A stretch of DNA of 42,338 bases from a virus. The DNA lies in the IMG/VR virus record IMGVR_UViG_3300009360_000004, one strand, 5' to 3'. The position numbers were made by a program, and so were the translations under genes. A model generated the notes under the pieces. The model was not told the DNA's origin. It made no database searches and saw only the letters and a list, made by a program, of their open reading frames with translations. Shown here piece by piece: positions 7,037 through 36,155 of this stretch (the stretch's first letter is position 1; every line of letters starts with the position of its first letter).

Positions 7037-10000
7037 GTGATGACTATGGCTTTCGAAGGACTGAATTTTGATGTTGGCCTGAACTCGAGGCCGTTCACAG
7101 ACGGAATCAAGACGATGCAGACTCAGGCTGCCTCGTTTGATAATACAATCAAGAATATTGGCAGAACGCTTATGGGAGTCTTCGGGACCGTCTCTGTCGT
7201 CGCCACACTGAAGAAGTCTATCGAGTTGTGGGGCGAGCAGGAGCAAGCGATGATGAAACTCTCCATCGCCGCGCAGAGGTTCACGAGAGACGCGCAGGGT
7301 ACATACGACAGGGTCACAAAACTGTCGGGCAATCTCCAGCACCTCACGGGCATAGGGAACGAGACGTACCAATCCGTCGCGGCTCTGGGCCTCTCGCTCG
7401 GAATCACGGAGGAGAAGATCGAGAACGCCACGACCGCGGCGGCCCTCCTCTCGCAGGTGACGGGGATGGATCTGAACAGCGCCATGAAGAACCTGGCAAA
7501 GACTCAGGCGGGATTGACGGGTGAACTTGGAGAAGCTCTCCCGTTTCTCAGAGAACTGACGCAAGAACAATTGAAGAGTGGTGCAGCAATCGACCTCGTG
7601 ATTCAGAAGTATGACGGCTTTGCCGAGCAGCTTTCAGGCACAACGCAGGTGGCGATGAAGAGATTCTGGTCCGCGCTTGGAGATGTCGGGGAGGTCCTGG
7701 GCAAGTCGTTCAACCCCTTGATTCAAAAAGCCGCTGACTGGATGGAAGGCTTCAGCTCGAAGATCGAGAAACCGACCGACATTCTCAAGACACTAAAAGA
7801 CACGATCAAGGCAGGATACGAAGAACTCGGGCCGTTCGGCAAGGCTGTTGTAGGTGTAGGTGCTGCGTTCCTGACGCTCAAGGTTGCTGGCACTGCATGG
7901 AGCTTGCTCTCACAGATAGTTGTGGCTGGTGGTCATCTGATTGTAGGCGTGTTCAAGACGATATTCTCGTGGCCCACACTCTTAATTGCTGGTTTGTACA
8001 CCCTTCGTGTTGCATGGGATCACGACTGGTTCGGGATTCAGGGGACGGTTGAACACGTTTGGAAAGTGATTGAGCCTATATTTATAAAACTCAAAGACGG
8101 TCTCGTCTCAGCCTCCACATGGGCTATATCTCTGGTTTGGGAAGGCGTGAAGTGGGCTGGAGAAAAGATAGCCGTCACATACGAAACTATCAAAGACTGG
8201 GTGCTCGAAGAGCTTGCACTTGGGAAGTCCCCGCTTGAGATCGTCGTTGATGCCGCAAAGATTGCGGGCGGTGTTGTCTGGGATGGTCTTACATGGGTAG
8301 GAGAAAAAATCGCGCTAGGTACGCAAATAGTCTTTGACTGGGTAAAATCTCAATTTGGAGATGAAATAGAGGTTGTAATCAATGCAGCTAAAGTCTTCGG
8401 TGGTATGGTTTGGAAAGGGCTCAAATGGGCCGGAGAGAAAGCAATAGTTACTGCACAGATGATTTATGATTTTGCTCTTAAATATGTACCGCTTGGTATT
8501 GAGACTGTTATCAACGTTGCATCAGTGTTTGGTTCGGTGATTTGGTCCGGCTTAAAATGGATAGGTGAAAAAGCAGTTAATCTTGCGGTTCTTATCAAAG
8601 ACTTTGCAGAAAGTGAAATAGATACAGGCTTTGAACAAACAATACAGATTGCAAAAGTCTTCGGCTCTATCATATGGTCTGGTCTCAAGTGGGTTGGAGA
8701 AAAGATAGTTCTCGGTATCAAAGTGATAGAAGGTTGGGTGAGAGATCAACTTGATCTCCCAGAAACCGCAACGCTCCCTGAAATCTTCCTTGATATGGTC
8801 AGAGTAGTTGGCACGGCAGCGTGGGATGGCTTGAAATGGGTAGGCCAGAAGGTTGCTATTGGTGCCAAAGAAGTCTATGATTGGGCTTCCGAAGGGCTAG
8901 AAACAGGCTTTGAACTCACAATCGAAGTTGCTAAACTGTTTGGCGGGGTAGCCTGGCAAGGGTTGGTAAAACTCGGTGAATGGTCATATGATGTTGCTGT
9001 GTGGGCTAAGGACAATGTCCTCCCTGCTGTGATTGAGACTACGGTTGAAGTTGGAAAGGTAATCGGTGGCGTTAGCTGGCTAGGTCTCAAATGGGTAGGT
9101 TCACAGATTGCGATAGGTTTTGACACTCTCAGAAACTGGGTCTATTCGGAGCTTGGCCTTGACAAGTATGGAGCGACATCAAATATCCTGATCGAAGTTG
9201 CCAAAGTCTTCGGAGGTCTAGGCTGGCTCGGTTTGAAATGGACCGGAGAAACGATAATTCTCGGATACGAAGCGCTCAAGAAGTGGACTGAAGAGCAGCT
9301 AGGCACCACACCGGTTGACATCATTCTCAATGTTGCGAAAGTAACAGGCACGGCAATCTGGGAAGGTGTGAAGTGGATAGACGACAAACTCCCAAAGATT
9401 GATCTCGGTGCTGACGATGAACAGAAAGTAGATCAGGGCATCGTGGATGTAGTTGTGAGTGCGATAGCTAACATTGCATCGTGGCAGTGGAGGGGCTTTG
9501 TCTGGCTCACTGAGAAGGCTTCATTCGGGCTCGACTGGCTCGCAGATCAGATCCGACCGAAAATAAATGTTGAAGTAAACGGAGACGATAACTCGGGTTT
9601 TGATATTGGAGATATAGGAGTATTCGCAAAGGGAGTCGCGAAGGTATTCTCAATGAAGTGGGAAGCCGTCAAGTGGCTCTGGACGAAAGTCACACAGAGC
9701 ACTTTCATTGAGGACCTGAAAAACAGAATAAAGAAATCATCGGGCATAGATGATGAGGTCGAAGTCACCTGGAAAGACTTGTTAGTCCGGGGCTTCGGCT
9801 CTATTGGCTCTGCCGCGTGGGATGGTCTTACATGGTTTGCGGAAGGTCCGGTACATACATTTGCCGACTGGGTACGAAAGCAGATCGGTATGAGCGAAGC
9901 CGGAGAGATGAAAGTAAACCTCGGGGATGACATTAAAGTGATCCTCTCGGGTGCAGTCTCTGGTGCGACTTGGCTAGTTGATTGGGTCAAACAAGGGATA

Positions 10001-19060: not shown

Positions 19061-19090
19061 CGCCCCCTGGCGAAAGCTGGGGGGCTTTTC
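19061..19090 (+). terminator. Rho-independent terminator with GAAA tetraloop
   Basis: gccccctggc-gaaa-gctggggggc hairpin (about 10 bp stem) followed by ttttctt. Confidence 0.65.
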
Positions 19091-19204
19091 TTGTTGCTTA
19101 TCATATGTATAGATTCGTTACTTATACTTTACTCTACTTTTATTGTAGATAGCATTATATCATGATATACTTTAGTTAAGGAAGCACAAAGAGGAGGGGT
19201 AGAG

Positions 19205-20849: not shown

Positions 20850-21443
20850 AGAAAGATTATAGCAGCATCTCTGGCTTCGATAGAAGTAAGAAGATCACCC
20901 CCCAGGATCGCTCAGGTTGCATTTTTCTGTGTGCGGGTATGTATTTGTACCATGCGCCGGAGATCTTTCAACCTGGGGCGTTTTGCGAGGTCACCGGATT
21001 TTGGGAGTCGGTACAGCTTTCGACTGGCCGTCCCGTGGGGCTGCCAGTCTCAAAACCCCGGTTCTTAAATCATAGTCGAAAATAGTCACTTTTTGCCAAG
21101 TTGTGCCAAATTGTTAGAAATCTATGCGCAACTATACGAAACTAGGCGCAATCAGGCGAAACATATAGAAAGAAGTGTATAATCGCGCCTATTTGTGCAT
21201 AGTTGTCTGCAATTAACTTTGCATTACTTGACGCAACTGACTAGAATTGACTTGTAACGATCTTTGACATACACATATCAGGTTCGGGCGCATCCAAAAG
21301 GACGAGCGAGGACGAGGTTCCCTAGCGACTGATGTGTGACTATAAGTACCAAAAGGACGCTGAATCAAGGGTATCCCGCTTTTTTTATTGTGGGGCGCTT
21401 GATTGAGCGCCTTTTTTTATATCAATCGAAAGGAGTGATAAAC
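20850..21443. promoter_or_regulatory. Divergent regulatory region between the minus-strand regulator and the + strand early genes
   Basis: ~590 bp without a convincing ORF; TTGAC-type hexamers (21228-21269), TGTATAAT at 21176-21183, direct repeats ttgccaag / tgccaaattg and gcgcaa; the ORF-track reading frames here lack RBS. Confidence 0.5.
21394..21418 (+). terminator. Rho-independent terminator or attenuator upstream of the 21444 gene
   Basis: ggcgcttgattgagcgcc hairpin followed by seven T. Confidence 0.5.
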
Positions 21444-22767: not shown

Positions 22768-22835
22768 AAAAAGCCGCTTTGCCGAGCGGCTCGAAACCTG
22801 AATATTCACAAGAAGTATAACACGAGGTGATCTAC

Positions 22836-24464
22836 ATGAGCAACGCGATAGTCAAGAACGGAAAGATCGGCCTCAAGTCCAGCATCAGCGAGTATCAGAA
22901 GTGCAAGCAGATACCCGGCGGGTACTGGAGCGGAAAGGCGAAGAGGTGGATCTACCCGGCTACGCCCGCCACAGCGAAGAGAATCCACGAACAGTTCAAG
23001 GAAGACCTTTCATACGACCTCGACTTTATGAACCTCCTCAAGGCAGCCGACGCGGTAGTCAGGAACCAGTCGTTCAAAGACGCGAACGACCTGCCCGATG
23101 TGCCGGTGTCGTTCACGAAGGCATGGCGGCACCAGAAACAGGCGTTCTGGTTTGCAAAGGATCTCAGAGCGGCGATGCTTGCTATGAGCATGGGCACTGG
23201 AAAGTCGAAAGTAGCCGTGGACCTGGTGGTCAACCGGAACCATAAGAAGACGCTCATAGTATGCCCGAAGTCGGTCGGGGCAGTCTGGCCCGACCAGTTC
23301 AAGATCCACAGCCCACAGACGAGAGTCATTGTATGCCTGGACCTGACGAGCGAGAAAGGCACGGTCGAGAAGAAGACGATCAAGGCCGGAGAGTTTCTCG
23401 AGCTGGCAAGAATCAAGGGCCAGCAAGCGGTAGTGATCATAAACTACGATTCTCTCTGGCGAAAGCCGTTCGGTGAATGGACAATGAAACAGGAATTCGA
23501 CCTCGTGATTCTCGACGAGTCGCACAGAATTAAGACCCCCGGATCTCAGGTCGGGAAGTTCGCGGCCAGGCTCGGTCGCACTGCAAAGTACAGGCTGGCC
23601 TTGACCGGAACGCCCATGCCCCACAGTCCGATGGATATCTATTCTCAGTATCGCTTCCTCGACACCGGGATATTCGGCACTTCGTTCGTGGCGTTCAAGA
23701 ACCGGTACGCGATCACGGGAGGCTTTCAGGGCCACGAGGTCATAGGCTGGCAGAACGAGGAGGAGATGAACAGGAAGTTCTTCTCCATCGCGTACAAGGC
23801 TGACAAATCGGTGATCCAACTCCCGGAGTACATGGACGTTTACAGGAAGGCCGAGCTTACGCCCAAAGCAATGAAAACTTACCGGGAATTGGAAGAAATT
23901 TTCTGGACTGATGTGGAGAAGGGCGAAGTAACAGCCGCGAATGCGCTTACCAGACTTCTCAGACTCCAGCAAGTCACTTCGGGGTACGTCACCACAGACG
24001 AGAGGGACGAAGTCGAGATCGACACGAGCAAGGCCGAGCTTCTGGCAGACATTATCGAAGACATTGAGATTGAAGAACCAGTCGCGGTGTTCGCCAGATT
24101 TCGGCACGATATCAGGACGATCAAGAAGACTTTCGAGAAGGCCGGGCGGTCCTGTGCGGAGCTGTCGGGTTCGGCAAATGAACTGAAGGACTGGCAGGAC
24201 GGAAAGTTCAACTCGATCGTGGTTCAGATCCAGTCCGGTGGCCTGGGCATCTCGCTGGTCCGCGCGAGGTACTGCATTTACTACTCGCTCGGATTCAGTC
24301 TCGGAGATTATGAGCAATCGAGGGCGAGAGTCCACAGACCGGGGCAGGAAAGAGAGGTCGTCTATATCCATCTGCTTATGAAAGACACGATAGACGAGAA
24401 GGTGTACGGAGCATTGAAAAAGAAGAGAGATGTTGTGCGAAGCATTCTCGACAGGGTGGTGTGA
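22836..24464 (+). CDS. SNF2-family helicase (DEAD/DEAH-box, SF2)
   Basis: ~543 aa from ATG 22836; Walker A MGTGKS, DEXH box LDESHRIK, SNF2-type LTGTPMPHSPMD, C-terminal helicase domain. Confidence 0.8.
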   Translation: MSNAIVKNGKIGLKSSISEYQKCKQIPGGYWSGKAKRWIYPATPATAKRIHEQFKEDLSYDLDFMNLLKAADAVVRNQSFKDANDLPDVPVSFTKAWRHQKQAFWFAKDLRAAMLAMSMGTGKSKVAVDLVVNRNHKKTLIVCPKSVGAVWPDQFKIHSPQTRVIVCLDLTSEKGTVEKKTIKAGEFLELARIKGQQAVVIINYDSLWRKPFGEWTMKQEFDLVILDESHRIKTPGSQVGKFAARLGRTAKYRLALTGTPMPHSPMDIYSQYRFLDTGIFGTSFVAFKNRYAITGGFQGHEVIGWQNEEEMNRKFFSIAYKADKSVIQLPEYMDVYRKAELTPKAMKTYRELEEIFWTDVEKGEVTAANALTRLLRLQQVTSGYVTTDERDEVEIDTSKAELLADIIEDIEIEEPVAVFARFRHDIRTIKKTFEKAGRSCAELSGSANELKDWQDGKFNSIVVQIQSGGLGISLVRARYCIYYSLGFSLGDYEQSRARVHRPGQEREVVYIHLLMKDTIDEKVYGALKKKRDVVRSILDRVV

Positions 24465-24465
24465 G

Positions 24466-24639
24466 ATGGAAGCACCCAGATTTGAAATCGGGAAAATACT
24501 GAAGCTGAACGGTCGGTTGGTCAGAATCGAAGATGTGGAACCGGGATGGGTTTACATACTCGATACCGGGGATTTCGCTTTCGAGCACGAACTGGAGGAA
24601 ACCGAAAATGAACTTTATTCTTCAGGTATACACAGGTAG
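24466..24639 (+). CDS. Small hypothetical protein
   Basis: 57 aa from ATG 24466, 2 nt after the SNF2 stop. Confidence 0.35.
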   Translation: MEAPRFEIGKILKLNGRLVRIEDVEPGWVYILDTGDFAFEHELEETENELYSSGIHR

Positions 24640-24734
24640 CCCATTCAGAGATTCGCCGTATTTCCCTATCTATATCGTTTCACAGAGAAAGTTACTTTAT
24701 AGAATCATGAATCTGAATTGAAGGAGGAATAGAC

Positions 24735-25166
24735 ATGAATATGACGAAAGTCAAGCAGTATGTGAACCTGCACGCGAAAAAGACGAAGCTCGAAGCCGAG
24801 CTCGCGAGTGTCAAGGAAAAGCTGAGCGAACTCGAGCCGTTCGTGCTCGAGCAATTTGAGAAGGCGGGGATTCAGAACATGAAGGTCGGAGACTGGAAGC
24901 CTTATGTCCACAGCCAGATCTGGGCCTCGGTCGACAAGAGCAATCCCCGGGCAATGGAGATCCTGAAAGCCAACGGGCTGGCAGACCTCGTGAGCGAGAC
25001 CGTGAACAGTCAAAGCCTCTCAGCCTACGTGCGCGAGCAGGTCAGGCTCTATGAAGACGCCGATTCGAAGAGCCTCGAAGAAGTATTGAAGGAAGCTATT
25101 TCACAGGAATTGCTAGAAGTGTTGAAAGTATCCGAGAAAACCAGCCTACGGGTTGTAAAGGCATAG
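24735..25166 (+). CDS. Hypothetical coiled-coil protein (replication/recombination module)
   Basis: 143 aa, RBS aaggagg; coiled-coil N-terminus. Confidence 0.45.
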   Translation: MNMTKVKQYVNLHAKKTKLEAELASVKEKLSELEPFVLEQFEKAGIQNMKVGDWKPYVHSQIWASVDKSNPRAMEILKANGLADLVSETVNSQSLSAYVREQVRLYEDADSKSLEEVLKEAISQELLEVLKVSEKTSLRVVKA

Positions 25167-25178
25167 GGAGGGAATGCA

Positions 25179-25901
25179 ATGAAGAAAGAAACAACTACCG
25201 CTATTGAAGTTGTGGAAAGCAAGTATCTTGTGTTGCAGGGAGATTCGGACATCGTCGAAATAGTCCAGGAAAACCTCGGCAGTGAAGGCGTTTCGGCATA
25301 CGATCTTGACCGCGTGAAGATCCCGGCGGGCGGAGCTACCGCGTTCGAAGTCCCCACGCTCGAGGGAGAGGAGAGCGTGAAGGAGATCGAGGGCATCATC
25401 ATTTTCTGGAAGACCGCTAGGGCCTACTGGCCCGAGAAGTTCAACGGCGAGAACAACCCGCCACAGTGCAGCTCGGTGGATGGCGAAGTCGGTCAGGGGA
25501 ACCCCGGAGGTTACTGCTCGAAGTGTCCGCTCGCTCAGTTCGGTTCGGCAGACAACGGTAAGGGTCAGGCGTGCAAGCAGATGAGACAGCTCTTCATCGT
25601 CCGCGAAAACGACATCCTGCCGCTGGTTCTCACGCTGCCACCCACAAGCATCAAGCCCGCGAAGCAGTATTTCATGAGACTGGCCAGCAAGGGTATAAAG
25701 TACACTCACGCAGTGACCAGAATCACCCTGGAGAAGGCCAAGAGTGGCGAGGGGATCACCTACTCCAAAGCGGCATTCGCGCTAGTGAAACAGCTTGAAC
25801 CGGCAGTCTGCACGAAGATCGATGCTTTCACGGAATCAATCAGACCGATGCTCGAGACCGTGGCAATAGAGAACGGCGAAGCCCCGGACTGGGACAACTG
25901 A
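25179..25901 (+). CDS. Hypothetical protein with central Cys cluster
   Basis: 240 aa, RBS gggaggg; segment CSSVDG...CSKCPLAQFG...CKQ suggests metal binding. Confidence 0.45.
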   Translation: MKKETTTAIEVVESKYLVLQGDSDIVEIVQENLGSEGVSAYDLDRVKIPAGGATAFEVPTLEGEESVKEIEGIIIFWKTARAYWPEKFNGENNPPQCSSVDGEVGQGNPGGYCSKCPLAQFGSADNGKGQACKQMRQLFIVRENDILPLVLTLPPTSIKPAKQYFMRLASKGIKYTHAVTRITLEKAKSGEGITYSKAAFALVKQLEPAVCTKIDAFTESIRPMLETVAIENGEAPDWDN

Positions 25902-25966
25902 ATCGAAGGGGAGGGGATGAAAGGGGCGTGCAATGAAGCACGCCCCATCTTTGAAGGAGTGATTCT

Positions 25967-27643
25967 ATGACCGAGTTTCTGCAAGAACTTTGGGGCTTCA
26001 AGCCGGAGAATTTGTTCGTGCTGGTCTGGCAGAAAAGAGGAAAGAAATCGAACTGGTTTCAGGATATAGGAAAGATCGAGAGCTTCGCCCAGAAGAACAG
26101 GGATCTGTCGGACCTGTACATCGGCGTGGGTTTGAGCCCGAAAGACTACGGATCGAAGAACCGCTGCCCCGCGAACGAGGTATCGGGGATCGCTGGATTT
26201 TGGGCCGACATTGACATTCTCGACGAGGTTCACAAGAAGGAGAACCTCCCTGCCTCGCTCGAAGAGGCAAAGAGTCTTTTCCCCGAACCGCCCACGTGCG
26301 TAATCCATTCGGGGCATGGCATACAGGCGTGGTGGTTGTTCAGAGAACCGTGGATCTTCGAGAACGAAGACGAAAGATTCAAGGCTCAGGCGATGTGTCA
26401 AGCCTGGCACCACAGGCTGTTGGAAAGGGCGACCGCCCGGGGCTGGGTGATCGACGCGACATTCGACCTGTCGAGGATTCTGAGAATCCCCGGGACGAAG
26501 AATCTCAAAGATCCGAAAGACGTTCGAGACGTGGAGCTGATCGAGCAAGAATGGACTACGAGGTACGAACCGGAAGATCTGGTCCCCGCGATCGTGGTCG
26601 AGAAGAAGGAAAGAGTCGAGACGGAGATCGGGAGGATCGCACTGCGGCCCGACGCCGCGCCGCCCACGGAGAAGTGGGAGGCCCTGATGAGCGCCGAGCC
26701 GAAATTCAAGAAATCGTGGAACCACGACAGGAAGGATCTCTCAGACCAGTCACCCAGTTCTTACGATTTTAGTCTTGCTTCGATCGCGTTTCAGGCCGAC
26801 TGGACGGACCAGGAGATCGTGGATCTTCTCATCGCCCACAGAAGGAAACACAAGGCAGATCTGAAGTTGCGAAAGGACTACTATCTCAGGACGCTTGAAA
26901 AGTTGAAGCTGGAAAGGAAGTACCAGGAAAAAATCAACGAGGCTCTGGAAACGCACAGCAAAAGAGCCACGGAAATAAAGGTAGCGCTCGCGAACGCCAA
27001 AGTCACATTGATCGAAGCGGAGAACAACGGCGCGAGCCTTGAGCGTGAAGAGATACTCAAAGAGCTGGAAAAGATTCTCGGCGTAAGAATCGAGAAGCTC
27101 CAGAAGTTCCTCTCCGAGCCTCCGTCGTACCGGCTTCAGACTCTGGCCACGAATATCAGCATCGAATCGGCCGGAGACATCATCTCGCAAACGAAATTCA
27201 GAATCAAGATCGCCGACGCTACCGGGGTCGTGATTCGACCGTTCAAGAAGGAAGAATGGTCGGACATAGCACAATTGATCCTAAACGCCTGCGAAGAGAT
27301 CGAGGTCGGTGAGGAGTCCACAGAGGCAGGATTCATAAACAGCCTACTAAGAAAATACCTGCACAGGAACACGAACTTAGTTTCGTTGCAGTCGGTGGAA
27401 GAGTACGGAGAGAAGATCCAGGAAGAGGGCTTTCCCTTTTCCCTAGAGGGCTACACGTACATTTCACTGTCGGAGATGCGAAAATTCATCCGCGTAACCA
27501 GCGGTGACGTACTAACGACCAAGCAGGTGGGTAAGTTGTTGAGAATAGCGGGGTGGAGCAACTGTGTAATCAACGTAAAGGTCGATGAAAAGAAGACTTC
27601 ACGCTCTCTGTTCAAGAAAAAAATCGAGCCTTCTGAAGTTTAA
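25967..27643 (+). CDS. Primase-polymerase (archaeo-eukaryotic primase superfamily) replication protein
   Basis: 558 aa; AEP-type motifs DIDILD (DxD), SGHGIQAWW (sGxGxH), RIPGTKN. Confidence 0.65.
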   Translation: MTEFLQELWGFKPENLFVLVWQKRGKKSNWFQDIGKIESFAQKNRDLSDLYIGVGLSPKDYGSKNRCPANEVSGIAGFWADIDILDEVHKKENLPASLEEAKSLFPEPPTCVIHSGHGIQAWWLFREPWIFENEDERFKAQAMCQAWHHRLLERATARGWVIDATFDLSRILRIPGTKNLKDPKDVRDVELIEQEWTTRYEPEDLVPAIVVEKKERVETEIGRIALRPDAAPPTEKWEALMSAEPKFKKSWNHDRKDLSDQSPSSYDFSLASIAFQADWTDQEIVDLLIAHRRKHKADLKLRKDYYLRTLEKLKLERKYQEKINEALETHSKRATEIKVALANAKVTLIEAENNGASLEREEILKELEKILGVRIEKLQKFLSEPPSYRLQTLATNISIESAGDIISQTKFRIKIADATGVVIRPFKKEEWSDIAQLILNACEEIEVGEESTEAGFINSLLRKYLHRNTNLVSLQSVEEYGEKIQEEGFPFSLEGYTYISLSEMRKFIRVTSGDVLTTKQVGKLLRIAGWSNCVINVKVDEKKTSRSLFKKKIEPSEV

Positions 27644-27650
27644 TAACAAC

Positions 27651-27672
27651 CCCTATATATAGGGATTTTTTT
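27651..27672 (+). terminator. Rho-independent terminator after the primase gene
   Basis: Palindrome ccctatatataggg followed by seven T. Confidence 0.55.
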
Positions 27673-27756
27673 CATTGATTTTTATTTTACTCATGATTTA
27701 GTTCCAGATCGTTAGTATAGTTAGTAACCCCCATCAATAGCCAAACACAGATTAGG

Positions 27757-27786
27757 GGAATGGTTAGGAATGGTTAGGAATGGTTA
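27757..27786. repeat. Three perfect tandem 10-bp direct repeats GGAATGGTTA (iteron-like)
   Basis: Read directly at 27757-27766, 27767-27776, 27777-27786 in an AT-rich gap between primase and helicase genes. Confidence 0.7.
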
Positions 27787-27999
27787 TTCTGACGGTTCGA
27801 CTGAAATAATGGAGCTGTTATTGATTAAAAGCCACTCGCACACAATAAAACAAAGAAAATTAGTATCTATTACTTACCAACGTGTCATATAACCGACCAT
27901 AAAACGCCGATTTGATGTAACTGATTTTACTACCCCGTGACAAATGTTACTGATTCGCGGCTGATGCAATGTAGTTTTAAGAAAAGGAGGTGATGTACT

Positions 28000-29688
28000 G
28001 TGGGCCAGGAATACAGAGTTTTCGGTCCTCCCGGGACGGGAAAGACCACGTATCTGAGTCGTCAAATTGAGAAAGCTGCCGGTGAATATAACGGCTCGGT
28101 GATAGTTTCTTCTTTCACAAGAGCCGCTGCCGTGGAGTTGGTTCAAAGAAAACTGCCGGTATCGCGCGAGAGTATCGGGACTCTCCACGCTCTATGTTAT
28201 CGGGCGCTGGGCCGACCGAAAATAGCGGAACTTTTCACGGAGGATTTCAACACGGAGCATCCGGGGTACAAGATCAGCCAGAGAGGGACGGCGATGGAGG
28301 ATATAGAGGCCGCGAAATCGAAGACGCAGGGCGATGAGATTTTCGCACAGATGCAGATCAAGCGCGCGCGAATGATACCGAAAAGCGTCTGGCCCGAGAC
28401 TCTTCTCGACTTCTCGCGAGTGTGGGAGGGCTGGAAAGAAGAAAACGGGTACATGGATTTCACGGACCTGATCGAGGAAGCTATCAGGTCCGTACCTGTG
28501 GCTCCTCAATCTCCCGCGGTAGGTTTCTTCGACGAGGTCCAGGACTTCACGCCCGTACAATTGAAGCTCGTGAGGCAGTGGGTGTCCCACATGGATTTTG
28601 CTATCTTGGCCGGAGACGACGATCAGTGCATATACTCTTTCGCGGGCGCTTCACCCGAGGCGTTCCTTGAACCCGAGCTTCCACAAGAATACGTCAGGGT
28701 GTTGAACCAGTCATGGAGACTCCCCAGAACGATTCAGGAGTACGCGGACTCGTGGATTCGCAAAGTCGCTGTCAGATACCCGAAGCAATACAGGCCCAAA
28801 GATTCCGAAGGTTTCGTGACTTTGTTTGACGCGAAATGGAAGAATCCTGAATTGTATATCCGTGAAATAGAACGGTATATACAGGGGGGTAAGACTGTGA
28901 TGATCCTCGCTACGTGTTCATACATGCTAGACCCTCTGAAGAAGATTCTCAAAGAAGCTGCTATCCCATTTCACAATCCGTACCGCAAGAGTCGAGGAGA
29001 CTGGAACCCATTAGGAAAAAGAAACGGCGTGTCGATGGTCGAGAGGATCATGGCCTTCCTTCTCCCCAGCTTCGAGGCGTGGGGTGAAGAGTCTCGCTGG
29101 TGGAGGCTGGACGACCTAAAGAAATGGATCATGGTTCTCAATTCCGCCGGAGTTCTCCAGCGCGGCGCGAAGAAGGCTTTGCTCGAGAAGCTCGAGACCA
29201 CAGAGGCCGTCGAGAAGAAAGAGGACGATTCCTTCGAGTTCGGCGCGAACATCATAGACGCCGAGTTCGAGTTCGGTGCAAACGAGAAGGAGGATCCCGC
29301 AATCGGCGTGGAGGAAATACTCTCGCAGTTCGAGCCGGAGGCTCGAAGGAGGGCCGAGGCTTCGGACCTGGACTGGTTCTACCACAATCTCTTGCCCGCA
29401 AAGAAGAAAATCGCGCAGTACCCGGTTTCCATCGTCCAGAAACACGGAGCAAGGGCGCTGGTGGAGAAGCCGCGACTAATTGTGGGGACGATTCACAGCG
29501 TGAAGGGCGGCGAGGCGGATATAGTCTATCTCTTCCCCGATCTCTCGCAGGAGGCATACCGCAACGCGATGACTGACAGGAGCAACAGAGACAGTATCAA
29601 ACGCCAGATGTACGTGGGCATGACGCGCGCGAGAGAGGGTCTCTATATCTGTGAGCCCTCGGATATGTGCCACGTGAAGTTTTCATAG
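28000..29688 (+). CDS. Superfamily 1 (UvrD/PcrA-like) DNA helicase
   Basis: 562 aa from GTG 28000 (RBS aaaggaggtga); Walker A GPPGTGKTT, FDEVQD, TIHSVKGGEAD, MYVGMTRAREGLYI. Confidence 0.75.
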   Translation: MGQEYRVFGPPGTGKTTYLSRQIEKAAGEYNGSVIVSSFTRAAAVELVQRKLPVSRESIGTLHALCYRALGRPKIAELFTEDFNTEHPGYKISQRGTAMEDIEAAKSKTQGDEIFAQMQIKRARMIPKSVWPETLLDFSRVWEGWKEENGYMDFTDLIEEAIRSVPVAPQSPAVGFFDEVQDFTPVQLKLVRQWVSHMDFAILAGDDDQCIYSFAGASPEAFLEPELPQEYVRVLNQSWRLPRTIQEYADSWIRKVAVRYPKQYRPKDSEGFVTLFDAKWKNPELYIREIERYIQGGKTVMILATCSYMLDPLKKILKEAAIPFHNPYRKSRGDWNPLGKRNGVSMVERIMAFLLPSFEAWGEESRWWRLDDLKKWIMVLNSAGVLQRGAKKALLEKLETTEAVEKKEDDSFEFGANIIDAEFEFGANEKEDPAIGVEEILSQFEPEARRRAEASDLDWFYHNLLPAKKKIAQYPVSIVQKHGARALVEKPRLIVGTIHSVKGGEADIVYLFPDLSQEAYRNAMTDRSNRDSIKRQMYVGMTRAREGLYICEPSDMCHVKFS

Positions 29689-29696
29689 GAGGCAGC

Positions 29697-29987
29697 ATGA
29701 GCGAAAAGTCGATAGTTAACTCGATACTGAAGTACCTGAACTCTCTTCCACAGTGCAGGGCCGAGAAGACCTGGGGCGGCGGGTACGGGAACGCAGGGAA
29801 ACCCGATATCACAGGGTGCCTGAGCGGGCGGCGCTTCGAGCTGGAGGTCAAGGTCCCCGGGGGTAAACTGACCCCGCTTCAAAAAGTCACGCTCGAGCAG
29901 TGGAAAGAGGCGGGCGCGATTGTGGCTGTGGTTCACAGTGTCGAAGAAGTGAAGGAGATATTGAAGGAGGCAAAATGCGAGAAATGA
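29697..29987 (+). CDS. VRR-NUC domain nuclease
   Basis: 96 aa from ATG 29697 (RBS taggagg); GKPDITG...ELEVKVPGGKLTPLQK matches the PD-(D/E)xK VRR-NUC pattern. Confidence 0.6.
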   Translation: MSEKSIVNSILKYLNSLPQCRAEKTWGGGYGNAGKPDITGCLSGRRFELEVKVPGGKLTPLQKVTLEQWKEAGAIVAVVHSVEEVKEILKEAKCEK

Positions 29988-30253
29988 TCGACTTCAACGG
30001 CGAAAAGCTGAGGGCAATCAGAGAAGAGAAGTGTCTGACGCAACGCGAACTGGCTTCTCGCGCGGGAGTTACGCAGGTGTATCTATCCAAGATGGAGTGC
30101 AATCACATCATCCCCAGACGGGCCGTGTGCGAGAAGCTGGCATGGGCTCTTCGTGTCGATCCCGATGAGTTTTTCGGACCTGCGGGCGAGACGCTCGACG
30201 ACATAGAAAATTACACCCGGATGTTCGAGAAAGTCCGGGCTATGGGGATGTGA
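29975..30253 (+). CDS. XRE-family helix-turn-helix transcriptional regulator
   Basis: ATG 29975 after gaaggagg RBS, overlapping the VRR-NUC 3-prime end; LRAIREEKCLTQRELASRAGVTQVYLSKMECN is a typical HTH_XRE segment. Confidence 0.65.
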   Translation: MREMIDFNGEKLRAIREEKCLTQRELASRAGVTQVYLSKMECNHIIPRRAVCEKLAWALRVDPDEFFGPAGETLDDIENYTRMFEKVRAMGM

Positions 30254-30266
30254 GGAGGGCCTAGAA

Positions 30267-31166
30267 ATGAGAATCGGTCTGATTGATGTTGATTCGAAGA
30301 TCCCTAACCTCGCCCTGATGAAGCTCTCGGCATGGCACAAAGCGAAAGGAGATAAGGTCGGGTTTTTCAATGCGCTTCAGAGATACGATCGTGTCTATGC
30401 CTCGAAAATCTTCGGCTTCACGGATGACTTCAAATACTGGCCTGGCTGCGAGATCGTAAAAGGCGGCAGCGGATATGACCTTGAGGCAAAACTCCCAGAA
30501 GAGATAGAGCATACTTACCCCGACTATGGGCTTTACGGTTGTGATTATGCTATGGGCTTCATCACTAGAGGTTGCATCCGAAACTGTCCTTTCTGCATTG
30601 TGCCGAGAAAAGAAGGCACGATACGCAAATCTGCTGATTTAGAAGAGTTCTGGAATGGGCAAAAGAGATTGATGCTTCTCGATAACAACATAACAGCAGC
30701 TCCAAAAGTGTTTGAAGAGACTATAAACAAAATTGTCGATTTGAAGATCAAAGTTGATTTTAGTCAAGGGTTGGACGCAAGACTCGTTGATGACAAAAAG
30801 TCGCTGCTGCTGTCGAAAGTCAGGTTGTGGAAGCAGATTCGTCTAGCTTGGGACAACGTAAAGGATGAGAGAGAAGTACTTCTAGGTTTGGAGATCCTTC
30901 TCAAATACAATTCCCCGAAACGCCTGATGATCTACGTCCTCATAGGCTTCGATTCCACGCCCGAGGAAGATCTCTATCGAGTAGAAAGGCTTCGAGAGAT
31001 GAAACTCGACTCTTTCGCTATGCCTTTCGACAGAAGAGATCCATACCAGAGGAACTTTGCGAGGTGGGTCAATCATAAGGCGATATTCAAGAGTGTTTCG
31101 TGGAATGAATACACTGCCAATAGAAAGAAGAGGAAAAGAAATCCGAGACAACTGGAGGTGAACTGA
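30267..31166 (+). CDS. Radical SAM protein with B12-binding-like N-terminal segment
   Basis: 299 aa, RBS gaggaggg; canonical C-x3-C-x2-C (CIRNCPFC) in GFITRGCIRNCPFCIV; N-terminus MRIGLIDVD...NLALMKLSAWHKAKGDKV resembles a Rossmann-like B12-binding segment. Confidence 0.65.
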   Translation: MRIGLIDVDSKIPNLALMKLSAWHKAKGDKVGFFNALQRYDRVYASKIFGFTDDFKYWPGCEIVKGGSGYDLEAKLPEEIEHTYPDYGLYGCDYAMGFITRGCIRNCPFCIVPRKEGTIRKSADLEEFWNGQKRLMLLDNNITAAPKVFEETINKIVDLKIKVDFSQGLDARLVDDKKSLLLSKVRLWKQIRLAWDNVKDEREVLLGLEILLKYNSPKRLMIYVLIGFDSTPEEDLYRVERLREMKLDSFAMPFDRRDPYQRNFARWVNHKAIFKSVSWNEYTANRKKRKRNPRQLEVN

Positions 31167-33959: not shown

Positions 33960-34032
33960 TTTCACCCACGCCACAGCCACTTGCTATTTTTGAAACAAGT
34001 GTGCTAAAATATGTTAGTGCTAAAAAACTGAG

Positions 34033-34066
34033 AAGGCCCGAGAGGGCCCGAGAGGGCCTTTTTTCA
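34033..34066 (+). terminator. Rho-independent terminator with tandemly duplicated hairpin
   Basis: ggcccgagagggcccgagagggcc followed by tttttt. Confidence 0.55.
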
Positions 34067-34131
34067 TGTAAACTCACACGGCTTTAATCCCGTGAAATAA
34101 GGCTCAGTAACTTACTAGAGGGAGGGTGCGA

Positions 34132-34518
34132 ATGAAAGTAACTATCGAGCAAGTTGCAGCAATTTGTCACGAAGTAAACAGGGCTTATGTTAATGCAACG
34201 GAGGGTAAAGACGTTCAACCGTGGCACTTAGCGCCACAGTGGCAAAAAGATTCCGCGATTGATGGCGTTAGGTATGCGTCTGAACATCCCGATAACACAC
34301 CAGAGAAAATGCACGATCGCTGGATGAAATATAGGCTGGCTAATGGTTGGGTTTATGGGGAGACTAAAGACGATGAAAAAAAGACCCATCCGTGTTTAGT
34401 TCCTTACTACGAGCTATCGGAGGCACAAAAGGCGAAAGACTATCTCTTTGATGCCGTTGTGAAAGCAGCTATGAATTATCTGAATTGCGACTTCTGCCCA
34501 CCAGCAGGTCGTCTATAA
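34132..34518 (+). CDS. RyR (ryanodine-receptor) domain protein
   Basis: ATG 34132 after agagggaggg RBS; HDRWMKYRLANGWVYGETKDDEKKTHPCLVPYYELSEAQKAKDY matches the RyR-domain signature (W...GW.YG...D..K.HP.LVP...L.E..K..D). Confidence 0.6.
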   Translation: MKVTIEQVAAICHEVNRAYVNATEGKDVQPWHLAPQWQKDSAIDGVRYASEHPDNTPEKMHDRWMKYRLANGWVYGETKDDEKKTHPCLVPYYELSEAQKAKDYLFDAVVKAAMNYLNCDFCPPAGRL

Positions 34519-34580: not shown

Positions 34581-34652
34581 AGGCACGTAGCGCAATGGCA
34601 GCGCATCCGTCTCATAAACGGAAGGGTAGCGGTTCGAATCCGTTCGTGCCAC
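34581..34652 (+). tRNA. tRNA with CAU anticodon (tRNA-Met or lysidine-modified tRNA-Ile2 type)
   Basis: Hand-folded cloverleaf: 6 bp acceptor stem plus A1-A72 mismatch, D arm gcgc/aatggca/gcgc, anticodon arm tccgt-ctCATaa-acgga, variable loop agggt, T arm agcgg-ttcgaat-ccgtt. Confidence 0.6.
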
Positions 34653-34821: not shown

Positions 34822-34998
34822 TTGAGTCAGGCCATACAATGCGACGAATGTGGAAAGACTGCACATATGACCCATCACTGGCACAAGCTCGACGGGCTGG
34901 ACTTCTGCTCGTGGAAGTGTGTGCGAAGGTTTGCGAATCGAAGGATCAAACAGGATCGGGAGTATCAGAGAGAGAAAGAAGGGATTGAATGCAGATAG
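34822..34998 (+). CDS. Small zinc-binding protein
   Basis: 58 aa from TTG 34822, 5 nt after tggaggt RBS; CDECGK ... CSWKC. Confidence 0.4.
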   Translation: MSQAIQCDECGKTAHMTHHWHKLDGLDFCSWKCVRRFANRRIKQDREYQREKEGIECR

Positions 34999-36155
34999 AA
35001 AAGAAGAAAGTCTCCGACTTAAAGTGTGCTCCATACAACCCGCGAAAGATTGACGACAAAGAGCTTGCAAAACTAAAACGAAGCATCACCGAGTTTGGTT
35101 ATGTAGAACCTATTGTCTGGAATAAACGCTCGGGCTTCGTTGTGGGAGGTAATCAGAGACTCAAGGCATTACGTGAGCTTGAAATAGAGGAAGCCGATGT
35201 CGTGGTTGTTGACCTTGACGACGCAAAGGAGAAAGCTCTCAATGTCGCCTTGAATAAAATCTCTGGCGAGTGGGACTTCATCAAGCTAAAGGACGTATTG
35301 ACTGACATTGACACAGGAGACTTTGACATAGAGCTGACTGGGTTTGATTTGGATGAGATAGGAGAATTGATAGCTTTCGACAAAGAACCTGAAGAAGATG
35401 GTTTCGACGTAGACGCTGCATTAGAAAACACAGAAGAACCCGTGACAAAACGCGGTGACATTTACCTGCTTGGAAAACATCGCCTGATGTGCGGGGACTC
35501 AACTATCAAAGAAGATGTCGAGAAGCTGATGGATGGTAAGAAAGCGGATATGGTGTTCACTGACCCGCCTTATGGGGTGAATTACGATGGCGGCACTAAA
35601 CTACGAAACAAATTAGCGGGCGATGATACCACCGATTTGTACGAGCCTTGCTGCAAAATGGCACGCGATTTCTCGACGAACGAAGCGGCTTTGTATCTTT
35701 GGCACGCAGGGGTGAAAGGGATAGCAGCCGCAGCCGCAGCCGCAGATTGGGTCATTCGTTGTGAGATAGTTTGGAATAAAAACCATGCACAATTCGGCGC
35801 GTTGTCGGCACAGTACAAACAAAAGCACGAGCCTTGTTATTATTGCTACAAAAAAGGAAAGACGGTAAATTGGTGTGGGCCGAAAAACGAAGTAACGGTG
35901 TGGGACGTTGACAGAGCGTTGGTGAATGAATACCATCCCACACAGAAGCCGGTGGAGTTGGCAAAACGCGCTATTCAAAACCACAAAGCGGATTTGGTAC
36001 TCGACTTATTCGGCGGCTCAGGCTCAACACTCATAGCTTGTGAACAGCTCAACCGCATCTGCTACATGATAGAAATTGACGAGCGATACTGCGATGTAAT
36101 CGTAAAGCGTTGGGAAGAATTCACAGGCAAGAAAGCTCAATTGATGAGGAAGTGA
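34989..36155 (+). CDS. ParB-like nuclease domain fused to DNA N6-adenine/N4-cytosine methyltransferase
   Basis: 388 aa; C-terminal motif IV FTDPPYG precedes motif I LDLFGGSGST; N-terminal ~120 aa is ParB/Srx-like. Confidence 0.7.
   Translation: MQIEKKKVSDLKCAPYNPRKIDDKELAKLKRSITEFGYVEPIVWNKRSGFVVGGNQRLKALRELEIEEADVVVVDLDDAKEKALNVALNKISGEWDFIKLKDVLTDIDTGDFDIELTGFDLDEIGELIAFDKEPEEDGFDVDAALENTEEPVTKRGDIYLLGKHRLMCGDSTIKEDVEKLMDGKKADMVFTDPPYGVNYDGGTKLRNKLAGDDTTDLYEPCCKMARDFSTNEAALYLWHAGVKGIAAAAAAADWVIRCEIVWNKNHAQFGALSAQYKQKHEPCYYCYKKGKTVNWCGPKNEVTVWDVDRALVNEYHPTQKPVELAKRAIQNHKADLVLDLFGGSGSTLIACEQLNRICYMIEIDERYCDVIVKRWEEFTGKKAQLMRK

Follow-up and report, generated by a model that had tools for sequence, protein, structure and literature searches.

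An iteron-like repeat array that co-varies with the C-terminal tail of its neighbouring primase-polymerase: a candidate replication origin in a tailed-phage genome

Results

Gene Content and Replication Module

The window analysed here, i.e. the whole 42,338-nucleotide stretch of IMG/VR record IMGVR_UViG_3300009360_000004, is a complete or near-complete tailed-phage genome with nearly all of its genes on the plus strand (Table 1). Its replication module comprises, in the first part, an SNF2 helicase, DUF7307, an unknown ORF (orf25179), a 558-residue primase-polymerase, and a UvrD/SF1 helicase, followed in the second part by a small endonuclease, an HTH protein, a radical-SAM protein, and MazG. 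The window thus encodes two helicases (SNF2 and SF1/UvrD) and a primase-polymerase, and no phage DNA polymerase gene is recognisable in it. A search of GenBank phage DNA with the window gave no match, leaving it without an annotated close relative, and protein-level searches returned nothing beyond distant AEP matches in actinophages. A host scan of a genome collection identified only a 3.9-kb contig in a Bacteroidales MAG bin and two distant Dehalococcoidia prophages (L055 and L056). The primase to SF1-helicase synteny persists to about 31–35% identity, including in these two prophages, where there is no gap after the primase gene. In the window the SF1-helicase gene has a GTG start codon and a strong Shine-Dalgarno sequence at 27985–27993.

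Several features elsewhere in the window were recorded. The stretch 34989–36155 encodes a DNA methyltransferase joined to a ParB-like N-terminal domain, with a tRNA-Met gene (34581–34652) just upstream, and GAGAGGGCCC is repeated 2.9 times in tandem at 34030–34058, in a short non-coding stretch before the ORF for a RyR-domain protein (34126–34518). In AT content, the stretch 19086–19190 (GC 0.20–0.26) ranks second in the genome; it lies directly after a strong terminator (19062–19085) and before a block of unknown small genes. An Rfam search of the window returned tRNA only, with nothing credible in the gap between the primase-polymerase and SF1-helicase genes.

Table 1. Features of the window discussed in the text (coordinates in the 42,338-nucleotide window)
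Feature	Position	Strand	Remarks
Tail and tape-measure genes	2–16 kb		
Endolysin	17.9 kb		
Replication module	22.8–31 kb (22827–31166)		
Primase-polymerase	25967–27643	+	PHROG 2478/28894 DNA polymerase/primase; AlphaFold2 model; Foldseek
Terminal β-hairpin ("wing", residues 531–552), codons	27557–27622	+	Hold co-varying residues 534, 536, 538, 543, 551
Possible inverted site 0, GTTATT	27642–27647	−	Overlaps primase stop codon; far side of AT tract
Palindrome CCCTATATATAGGG	27651–27664	.	Part of conserved TATAGGGA + T-run box
AT tract with phased T-runs	27665–27704	.	GC 17%; second least stable 40-mer by nearest-neighbour energy
Sites 1 and 2 (GTTAG at 27711, GTTAG at 27720; 9 bp apart)	27711–27724	+	Occupied in L004 and type B too
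Box AGCCAAACA	27739–27747	+	Between sites 2 and 3; AGCCAAA(C/G)A in types A and B
Sites 3–6 (ATTAGG 27751, GTTAGG 27763, GTTAGG 27773, GTTAT 27783)	27751–27787	+	
Non-coding helicase leader ("module 2")	27831–27975	+	Exchangeable cassette outside the iteron array; contains "actgatt" pair
SF1 (UvrD-like) helicase	28000–29688	+	Pfam UvrD-helicase/AAA_19/UvrD_C; PHROG 1967
Terminase large subunit, portal, and head genes	36.5–40 kb		

The Gap between the Primase-Polymerase and Helicase Genes

A first-pass annotation of the window, made from its letters and open reading frames, had pointed to an AT-rich gap between the primase and SF1-helicase genes. This gap is indeed present; it measures 356 bp (27644–27999) and has a GC content of 36% versus 50% for the window. 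The AT-richest 40-mer of the window (GC 0.17) lies within it as the AT tract of Table 1, and the AT-richest 350-bp stretch is also found here (27606–27955). The AT tract is a candidate DNA-unwinding element and is positioned laterally to the main repeat array described below, not centrally.

Between the primase stop codon and the AT tract is a short palindrome, which the first-pass annotation had taken for a primase terminator. The palindrome has a 5-bp stem with three GC pairs and a folding energy of −6 kcal/mol (z −1.0), and the hairpin is not formed in the related loci L004, L016, and L049, though the TATAGGGA + T-run sequence is kept. This motif occurs once in the window, where far stronger terminators exist elsewhere. 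The palindrome is at best a weak terminator, and may instead be DNA that melts or bends readily. GC skew, proposed along with the first-pass annotation as a check on the origin reading, rises cumulatively from about 2 kb to about 40 kb without an inflection at 27.7 kb; such a steady rise is uninformative on the origin because nearly all genes lie on one strand, and is not contrary to an origin in the gap.

A Triple Repeat Forms the 3′ Half of a Six- to Seven-Site Array

The three perfect tandem copies of GGAATGGTTA reported in the first-pass annotation were confirmed at 27757–27786, where they form the top-scoring tandem repeat of the window (TRF score 60). The chance expectation for a perfect triple 10-mer is about 4e-8 in 42 kb, and none was found in 200 shuffles. 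The partial copy described as preceding the triple is likewise real, since ATTAGG at 27751–27756 is itself a conserved site (site 3). The triple corresponds to sites 4–6, i.e. the 3′ half, of an array of 6–7 sites with the motif RTTAG(G), whose six main members all lie on the plus strand at successive spacings of 9, 31, 12, 10, and 10 bp (Table 1). With a spacing of 9–12 bp and direct orientation, neighbouring sites would lie on one face of the DNA helix. The first site is 68 bp after the primase stop codon, and an array is present at this position in 20 or more relatives. Five of the 22 plus-strand RTTAG copies in the window sit within 67 bp in the array and no second RTTAG cluster occurs elsewhere in the window; in a plain 5-mer count, the array region only ties the top 0.5% of 80-bp windows. 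The case for the wider array therefore rests on the comparison with relatives and not on 5-mer enrichment by itself.

A possible seventh site (site 0) lies in inverted orientation over the primase stop codon. At or near this codon, an inverted TTACG (CGTAA) is found in six of eight type-B loci, against a background of 0.57 per kb, and ATAAC in four of five type-A loci (types are defined below). From these sequences an opposed layout of sites across the AT tract is suggestive only. The box AGCCAAACA is degenerate in L047, L048, and L049. Its presence in both specificity types implies that it is not read by the variable hairpin of the primase-polymerase described below; the box may instead serve a host factor or mark the point where priming starts.

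Other functions were considered for the repeats and their surroundings. Folded as single-stranded DNA, 27700–27800 gives −5.5 kcal/mol (z +0.71), no better than shuffled sequence, and an ssi-type hairpin primase origin like that used by RSF1010 RepB′ was rejected. A small ORF at 27770–27892 (40 residues) has no family match and is not conserved in type-B relatives. A pac/cos site was rejected, the terminase and portal genes being at 36.5–39 kb, as was a partition site, the sole ParB-like match being the N-terminal domain of the DNA methyltransferase fusion.

Array Geometry Is Conserved While the Motif Switches between Two Types

About 50 related loci were gathered from IMG/VR, from JGI/ENA/Logan metagenomes, and from GTDB genomes. 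The near-identity of the gap in the 96% identical relatives L002 and L003 was rejected as a sign of constraint, the entire 26.3–29.1 kb block being about 99% identical in them. More distant relatives are informative: the six-site geometry holds across relatives of about 70% identity. L004, L018, and L048 (primase identity 68%) keep the sites, at the same spacing, in a degenerate form; sites 1 and 2 of L004 are GTTAG and ATTAG, and its sites 3–6 are spaced by 12, 10, and 9 bp. L047 carries four copies of TTAGG and, like the window, belongs to the TTAG type (type A). In a second set of loci (type B: L008–L010, L012–L016, L019, and L049–L053) the geometry is retained with RTTACG in place of RTTAG(G). 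The positions of sites 1 and 2 are TTGCG and GTTACG in type B, and TTACG is found at the positions homologous to sites 3–6. The change from TTAG(G) to TTACG is a concerted G-to-C substitution at one motif position in sites 2, 3, 4, and 6.

At about 35% identity, several loci have short repeats of other kinds directly following the primase stop codon, i.e. CCGTAA (seven copies) in L021, GTTATC (five copies, including three of GGTTATCT) in L023, ACTACG (four copies) in L031, GGGTTA (five copies) in L034, and GAGTAG (five copies) in L035. In all five the repeats exceed the background of their own contig by 6-mer enrichment, and in L021, L034, and L035 inverted repeat sets flank an AT-rich centre. 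No significant array was found in 9 of about 14 distant loci. The apparent repeats in L022 and L028/29 are not significant by exact 6-mer enrichment, and the primase gene abuts the next gene, leaving no gap, in L030, L036/37, L039, L055, and L056.

The Helicase Leader and a Second Repeat-Bearing Region

The non-coding leader of the helicase gene (module 2) occurs in at least three unrelated versions among the relatives. L010 lacks it, and a palindrome (CCGATTGTTTGTAAT...ATTTACAAATCGG) takes the place of part of it in L047 and L053. The versions share only GTTACTGATT/GTTACTAAT, about 50 nt ahead of the start codon. The "actgatt" repeats that the first-pass annotation had placed near the helicase do exist, as a two-copy, 12-nt pair with one mismatch (27915–27926 and 27944–27955), but they are not borne out as iterons, since they belong to this exchangeable leader and the second copy alone is conserved. 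A structured RNA in this distal part of the gap was rejected, its fold being no better than that of shuffled sequence (z +1.27) and without an Rfam match.

A second non-coding region with repeats is present at 21094–21205, within the non-coding stretch 21069–21430. It contains two copies of TGCCAA(G/A)TTG and four units with a 10-bp period (CTATGCGCAA, CTATACGAAA, CTAGGCGCAA, and TCAGGCGAAA), with a 24-nt inverted partner at 21182–21205. The region is 94.8% identical in L004, versus 75–84% for the flanking genes. It may serve as an operator/switch region, encode an sRNA, or act as an alternative origin.

Predicted Structure of the Primase-Polymerase

The primase-polymerase was modelled with AlphaFold2 (pLDDT 91 over its whole length, 95 over residues 360–558). 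The model comprises an AEP catalytic domain (residues about 1–205), a helix bundle (residues 234–300) predicted to follow the AEP domain, in the position of a PriCT-type domain but without a Pfam match, a long helix (residues 303–354), and a C-terminal region (residues about 360–552) predicted to consist of winged-helix-type domains. Neither Pfam, PHROGs, nor the model gave a P-loop/ATPase, i.e. an ATPase/helicase domain, in the 558 residues. Foldseek matches to the AEP domain include the cyanophage S-2L PrimPol (6zp9, E 1.8e-6) and RepB′ (3h25, E 5.8e-4), and D81-x-D83 and S115-G-H-G118 are (nearly) invariant among 98 homologues. The protein is assigned to the AEP superfamily by its modelled fold together with these DxD and sGH motifs.

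The last winged helix of the model is formed by helices 501–512 and 518–527 and the hairpin 531–552, in which DSSP assigns strands to residues 531–539 and 542–552. The C-terminal model most closely resembles the C-terminal regions by which SCCmec Cch and SaPI Rep bind their origins; a PDB sequence search with the family profile gave spurious calmodulin matches only. By β-strand geometry, residues 534, 536, and 538, which alternate on one strand of the predicted hairpin, would point to the same face.

Motif Type Co-varies with the Terminal Hairpin

We aligned the primases and identified the columns that separate TTAG-type from TTACG-type loci. Perfect segregation was observed for columns 534, 536, 538, 543, 551, and 554, all in the last 25 residues of the primase. 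Overall 5–6 of about 1665 testable columns segregate, with about 552–560 columns tested in the primase, and none of about 1100 segregates in the SNF2 helicase, DUF7307, orf25179, the SF1 helicase, and the endonuclease. The scan covered the primase and these five neighbours, i.e. proteins encoded on short contigs. In a prospective test, the motif type was predicted from protein tails alone and previously unseen contigs were then fetched; tail type predicted motif type correctly in seven of seven new contigs, with TTAGG and (C/T)TAG arrays for the tail-A cases P0007 and P0025, and TTACG arrays for the tail-B cases P0005, P0011, and P0024.

Sequence identity between the window and the type-B members of its clade varies sharply along the locus. 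The body of the primase is 86–92% identical, the tail codons 47–52%, the 64 nt of palindrome and AT tract 91–96%, the repeat module 53–56%, and the downstream sequence 84–99%. Type-A L047, by comparison, is 88–95% identical to the window in its tail, AT-tract, and repeat segments. The association of tail with motif also holds in L004, L018, and L048, where the C-terminal region of the primase is otherwise only about 57% identical to that of the window. The independent tail/repeat exchange events behind the perfect association are probably few (2–4).

L004 also contains a 52–55-bp direct duplication of the primase tail-coding segment just after the repeats (7605–7660 versus 7833–7887), and the same is seen in L018 and L048. 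The duplication has the appearance of a scar left by recombination in which a cassette comprising tail, AT tract, and repeats was exchanged.

Discussion

A Candidate Origin and Its Proposed Recognition by the Primase-Polymerase

We favour, with somewhat better than even confidence, the interpretation that the array consists of iterons bound by the winged helix of the primase-polymerase itself and marks a replication origin before the SF1-helicase gene, by analogy with the systems compared below. The first-pass annotation had described tandem iterons in an AT-rich gap flanked by replication genes as typical of a replication origin, and the gap as a candidate origin. The comparison of relatives gives good support to the part of that claim concerning iterons of a protein-binding type in an AT-rich gap; origin function is argued by analogy. 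In the proposed mechanism, the primase-polymerase would bind the array sites via its own C-terminal winged helix, whose terminal hairpin would read, with one of its faces (residues 534, 536, and 538, plus 543 and 551), the base in which TTAGG and TTACG differ. Several primase-polymerases on the array, perhaps joined by the long helix 303–354, would then distort and open the adjacent AT tract, on which the AEP domain would prime. The SF1 helicase, encoded directly downstream, may take over unwinding, and a host polymerase presumably elongates, a presumption made because a phage DNA polymerase gene was not found. Physical binding, unwinding, and priming at the array, and hence its function as an origin, are what we infer from the arrangement.

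Alternative Explanations

The array could instead be a transcriptional control site, through which the primase (by autoregulation) or another regulator controls read-through or a promoter of the helicase operon; we consider this rather unlikely. Its position between the weak terminator-like palindrome and the helicase leader would suit such a role, but a scan for sigma-70-like promoters found none in 27300–28300, and L010 keeps the array though the leader is absent and a Shine-Dalgarno sequence follows directly. An HTH_3 regulator is encoded 2 kb downstream of the array (29900–30253), yet its gene is missing at the syntenic position in L004 and L014, both of which carry the array. Initiators commonly autoregulate through their own iterons, as in iteron plasmids, and the co-variation with the primase tail equally fits an operator bound by the primase. 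Such an operator would, however, be expected upstream of the primase gene, whereas the array is downstream of it, and autoregulation would in any case leave origin function possible.

A further possibility is that the sites are recognised by some protein besides the primase whose gene lies beyond the compared contigs, for instance the HTH protein at 29900–30253, in which case the co-variation would reflect physical linkage and mosaic recombination. The tail-coding patch is just about 70–150 bp from the repeats, the compared contigs are short and cover a minor part of the genome, and the independent exchange events are few. Nevertheless, the two divergent patches are split by 64 conserved nt (91–96% identity), making linkage within one contiguous cassette an unlikely explanation, and the SF1 helicase, whose 5′ end is similarly close to the array, has no segregating column among 554. 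Moreover, on one strand of the modelled winged-helix hairpin the segregating residues occupy positions i, i+2, and i+4, where contacts with DNA are expected, and the association persists in L004, L018, and L048 despite the low identity of their primase C-terminal regions. A binder other than the primase therefore seems improbable.

A true origin elsewhere, e.g. at 21094–21205, would make the array an auxiliary cis site (similar to P4 crr) or a site of primase loading or pausing. Phage P4 needs two iteron clusters, the second being crr, and the 21.1-kb region of the window, with its four 10-bp-period repeats and 24-nt inverted repeat, is more conserved in L004 than the flanking genes. The repeats there differ in sequence from those of the array, though, and RTTAG clusters are found nowhere else in the window, the primase-matched motif being confined to the gap; we assign this alternative a low probability. 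Finally, the three copies do not differ by a single letter, which hints at a recent duplication, and by 5-mer count the region only ties the top 0.5% of windows, but it is highly improbable that the triple is a non-functional slippage product in a spacer, given that site positions and spacing are kept in relatives of about 70% identity, that the motif shifts in concert across sites, and that it matches the primase tail in all seven prospective cases.

Implications of Putative Initiator and Iteron Pairs

If the primase-polymerase does bind the array, the two types may represent natural orthogonal initiator/origin pairs, in which a one-base iteron switch is matched by 5–6 residues on one face of the hairpin, and phages that circulate together swap the determinants in two patches that do not adjoin, with scars such as the duplication in L004 left behind. 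We hold this reading tentatively, as a serious possibility that falls somewhat short of even. If true, it would imply selection for replicon specificity, i.e. escape from competition or hijacking by relatives, and a phage lineage in which the primase itself binds the origin, with an SF1/UvrD-type helicase as its partner. To our knowledge, a pairing of a primase origin binder with an SF1/UvrD-type helicase is uncharacterised for theta-type initiation. Confirmation would provide a defined origin and initiator for an uncultivated phage lineage of engineered/anaerobic metagenomes, and a compact, testable recognition rule relating five hairpin residues to one base of a 5–6-bp iteron, which could supply orthogonal replication modules. 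It would also place an origin-binding winged helix on an AEP primase-polymerase with a separate SF1 helicase.

Comparison with Known Systems

SaPI Rep and SCCmec Cch2 have 5–6-bp iterons directly downstream of their own genes, bound by C-terminal (winged-helix) domains (PMC9371898; PMC7581432). The locus described here resembles these and P4-like iteron-type origins in having short repeats that are spaced by about one helical turn and directly follow the putative initiator ORF, an AT-rich region beside the iterons, and a predicted winged-helix domain on the initiator. The initiator and iteron specificities also appear, from the sequences compared, to be matched (hairpin residues versus TTAG/TTACG). 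In contrast to the initiators of these origins, the putative phage initiator is not a (self-loading) replicative helicase in its own right. The SaPI winged helix is carried by a self-loading hexameric helicase, whereas here it is predicted on a helicase-less AEP primase-polymerase, with the SF1/UvrD gene separate, and sequence homology is not detectable. Furthermore, in the clade of the window nearly every site points the same way, and the AT tract lies to one side of the array and not, as in SaPIs, at its centre. Opposed, SaPI-like site sets are evident only in the distant loci L021, L034, and L035, the window having one candidate inverted site. The SCCmec system differs in that the origin binder (Cch/Cch2) is an MCM-like helicase and not a primase, in that its CCPol-MP primase is not of the AEP type, and in that the host element is a chromosomal cassette and not a tailed phage.

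Among AEPs, origin recognition has been predicted for AEP-PriCT-WH architectures, and ColE2 Rep, a helicase-less AEP, binds and opens its origin via C-terminal DNA-binding modules (PMC5862659). The phage primase-polymerase is similar to ColE2 Rep with respect to being an AEP without a helicase, with C-terminal modules of a predicted DNA-binding type. The ColE2 origin differs from the present locus in having a single short site in place of an array of 6–7 sites, and the ColE2 Rep monomer makes a fixed 3-nt primer, with no dedicated helicase partner encoded. In ColE2 the origin follows closely after rep, and what separates the specificity of ColE2 from that of ColE3 is a small number of C-terminal residues and one differing base in the origin. 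Phage P4 alpha is a primase-helicase whose C-terminal winged-helix origin-binding domain reads repeated short sites, and the present system may, by analogy, be likened to it as a phage primase-containing initiator with a C-terminal winged helix and short repeated sites. If confirmed, the locus would extend the known design of an initiator gene followed by its own iterons, as found in SaPIs, SCCmec, and some plasmids, without invoking a new principle.
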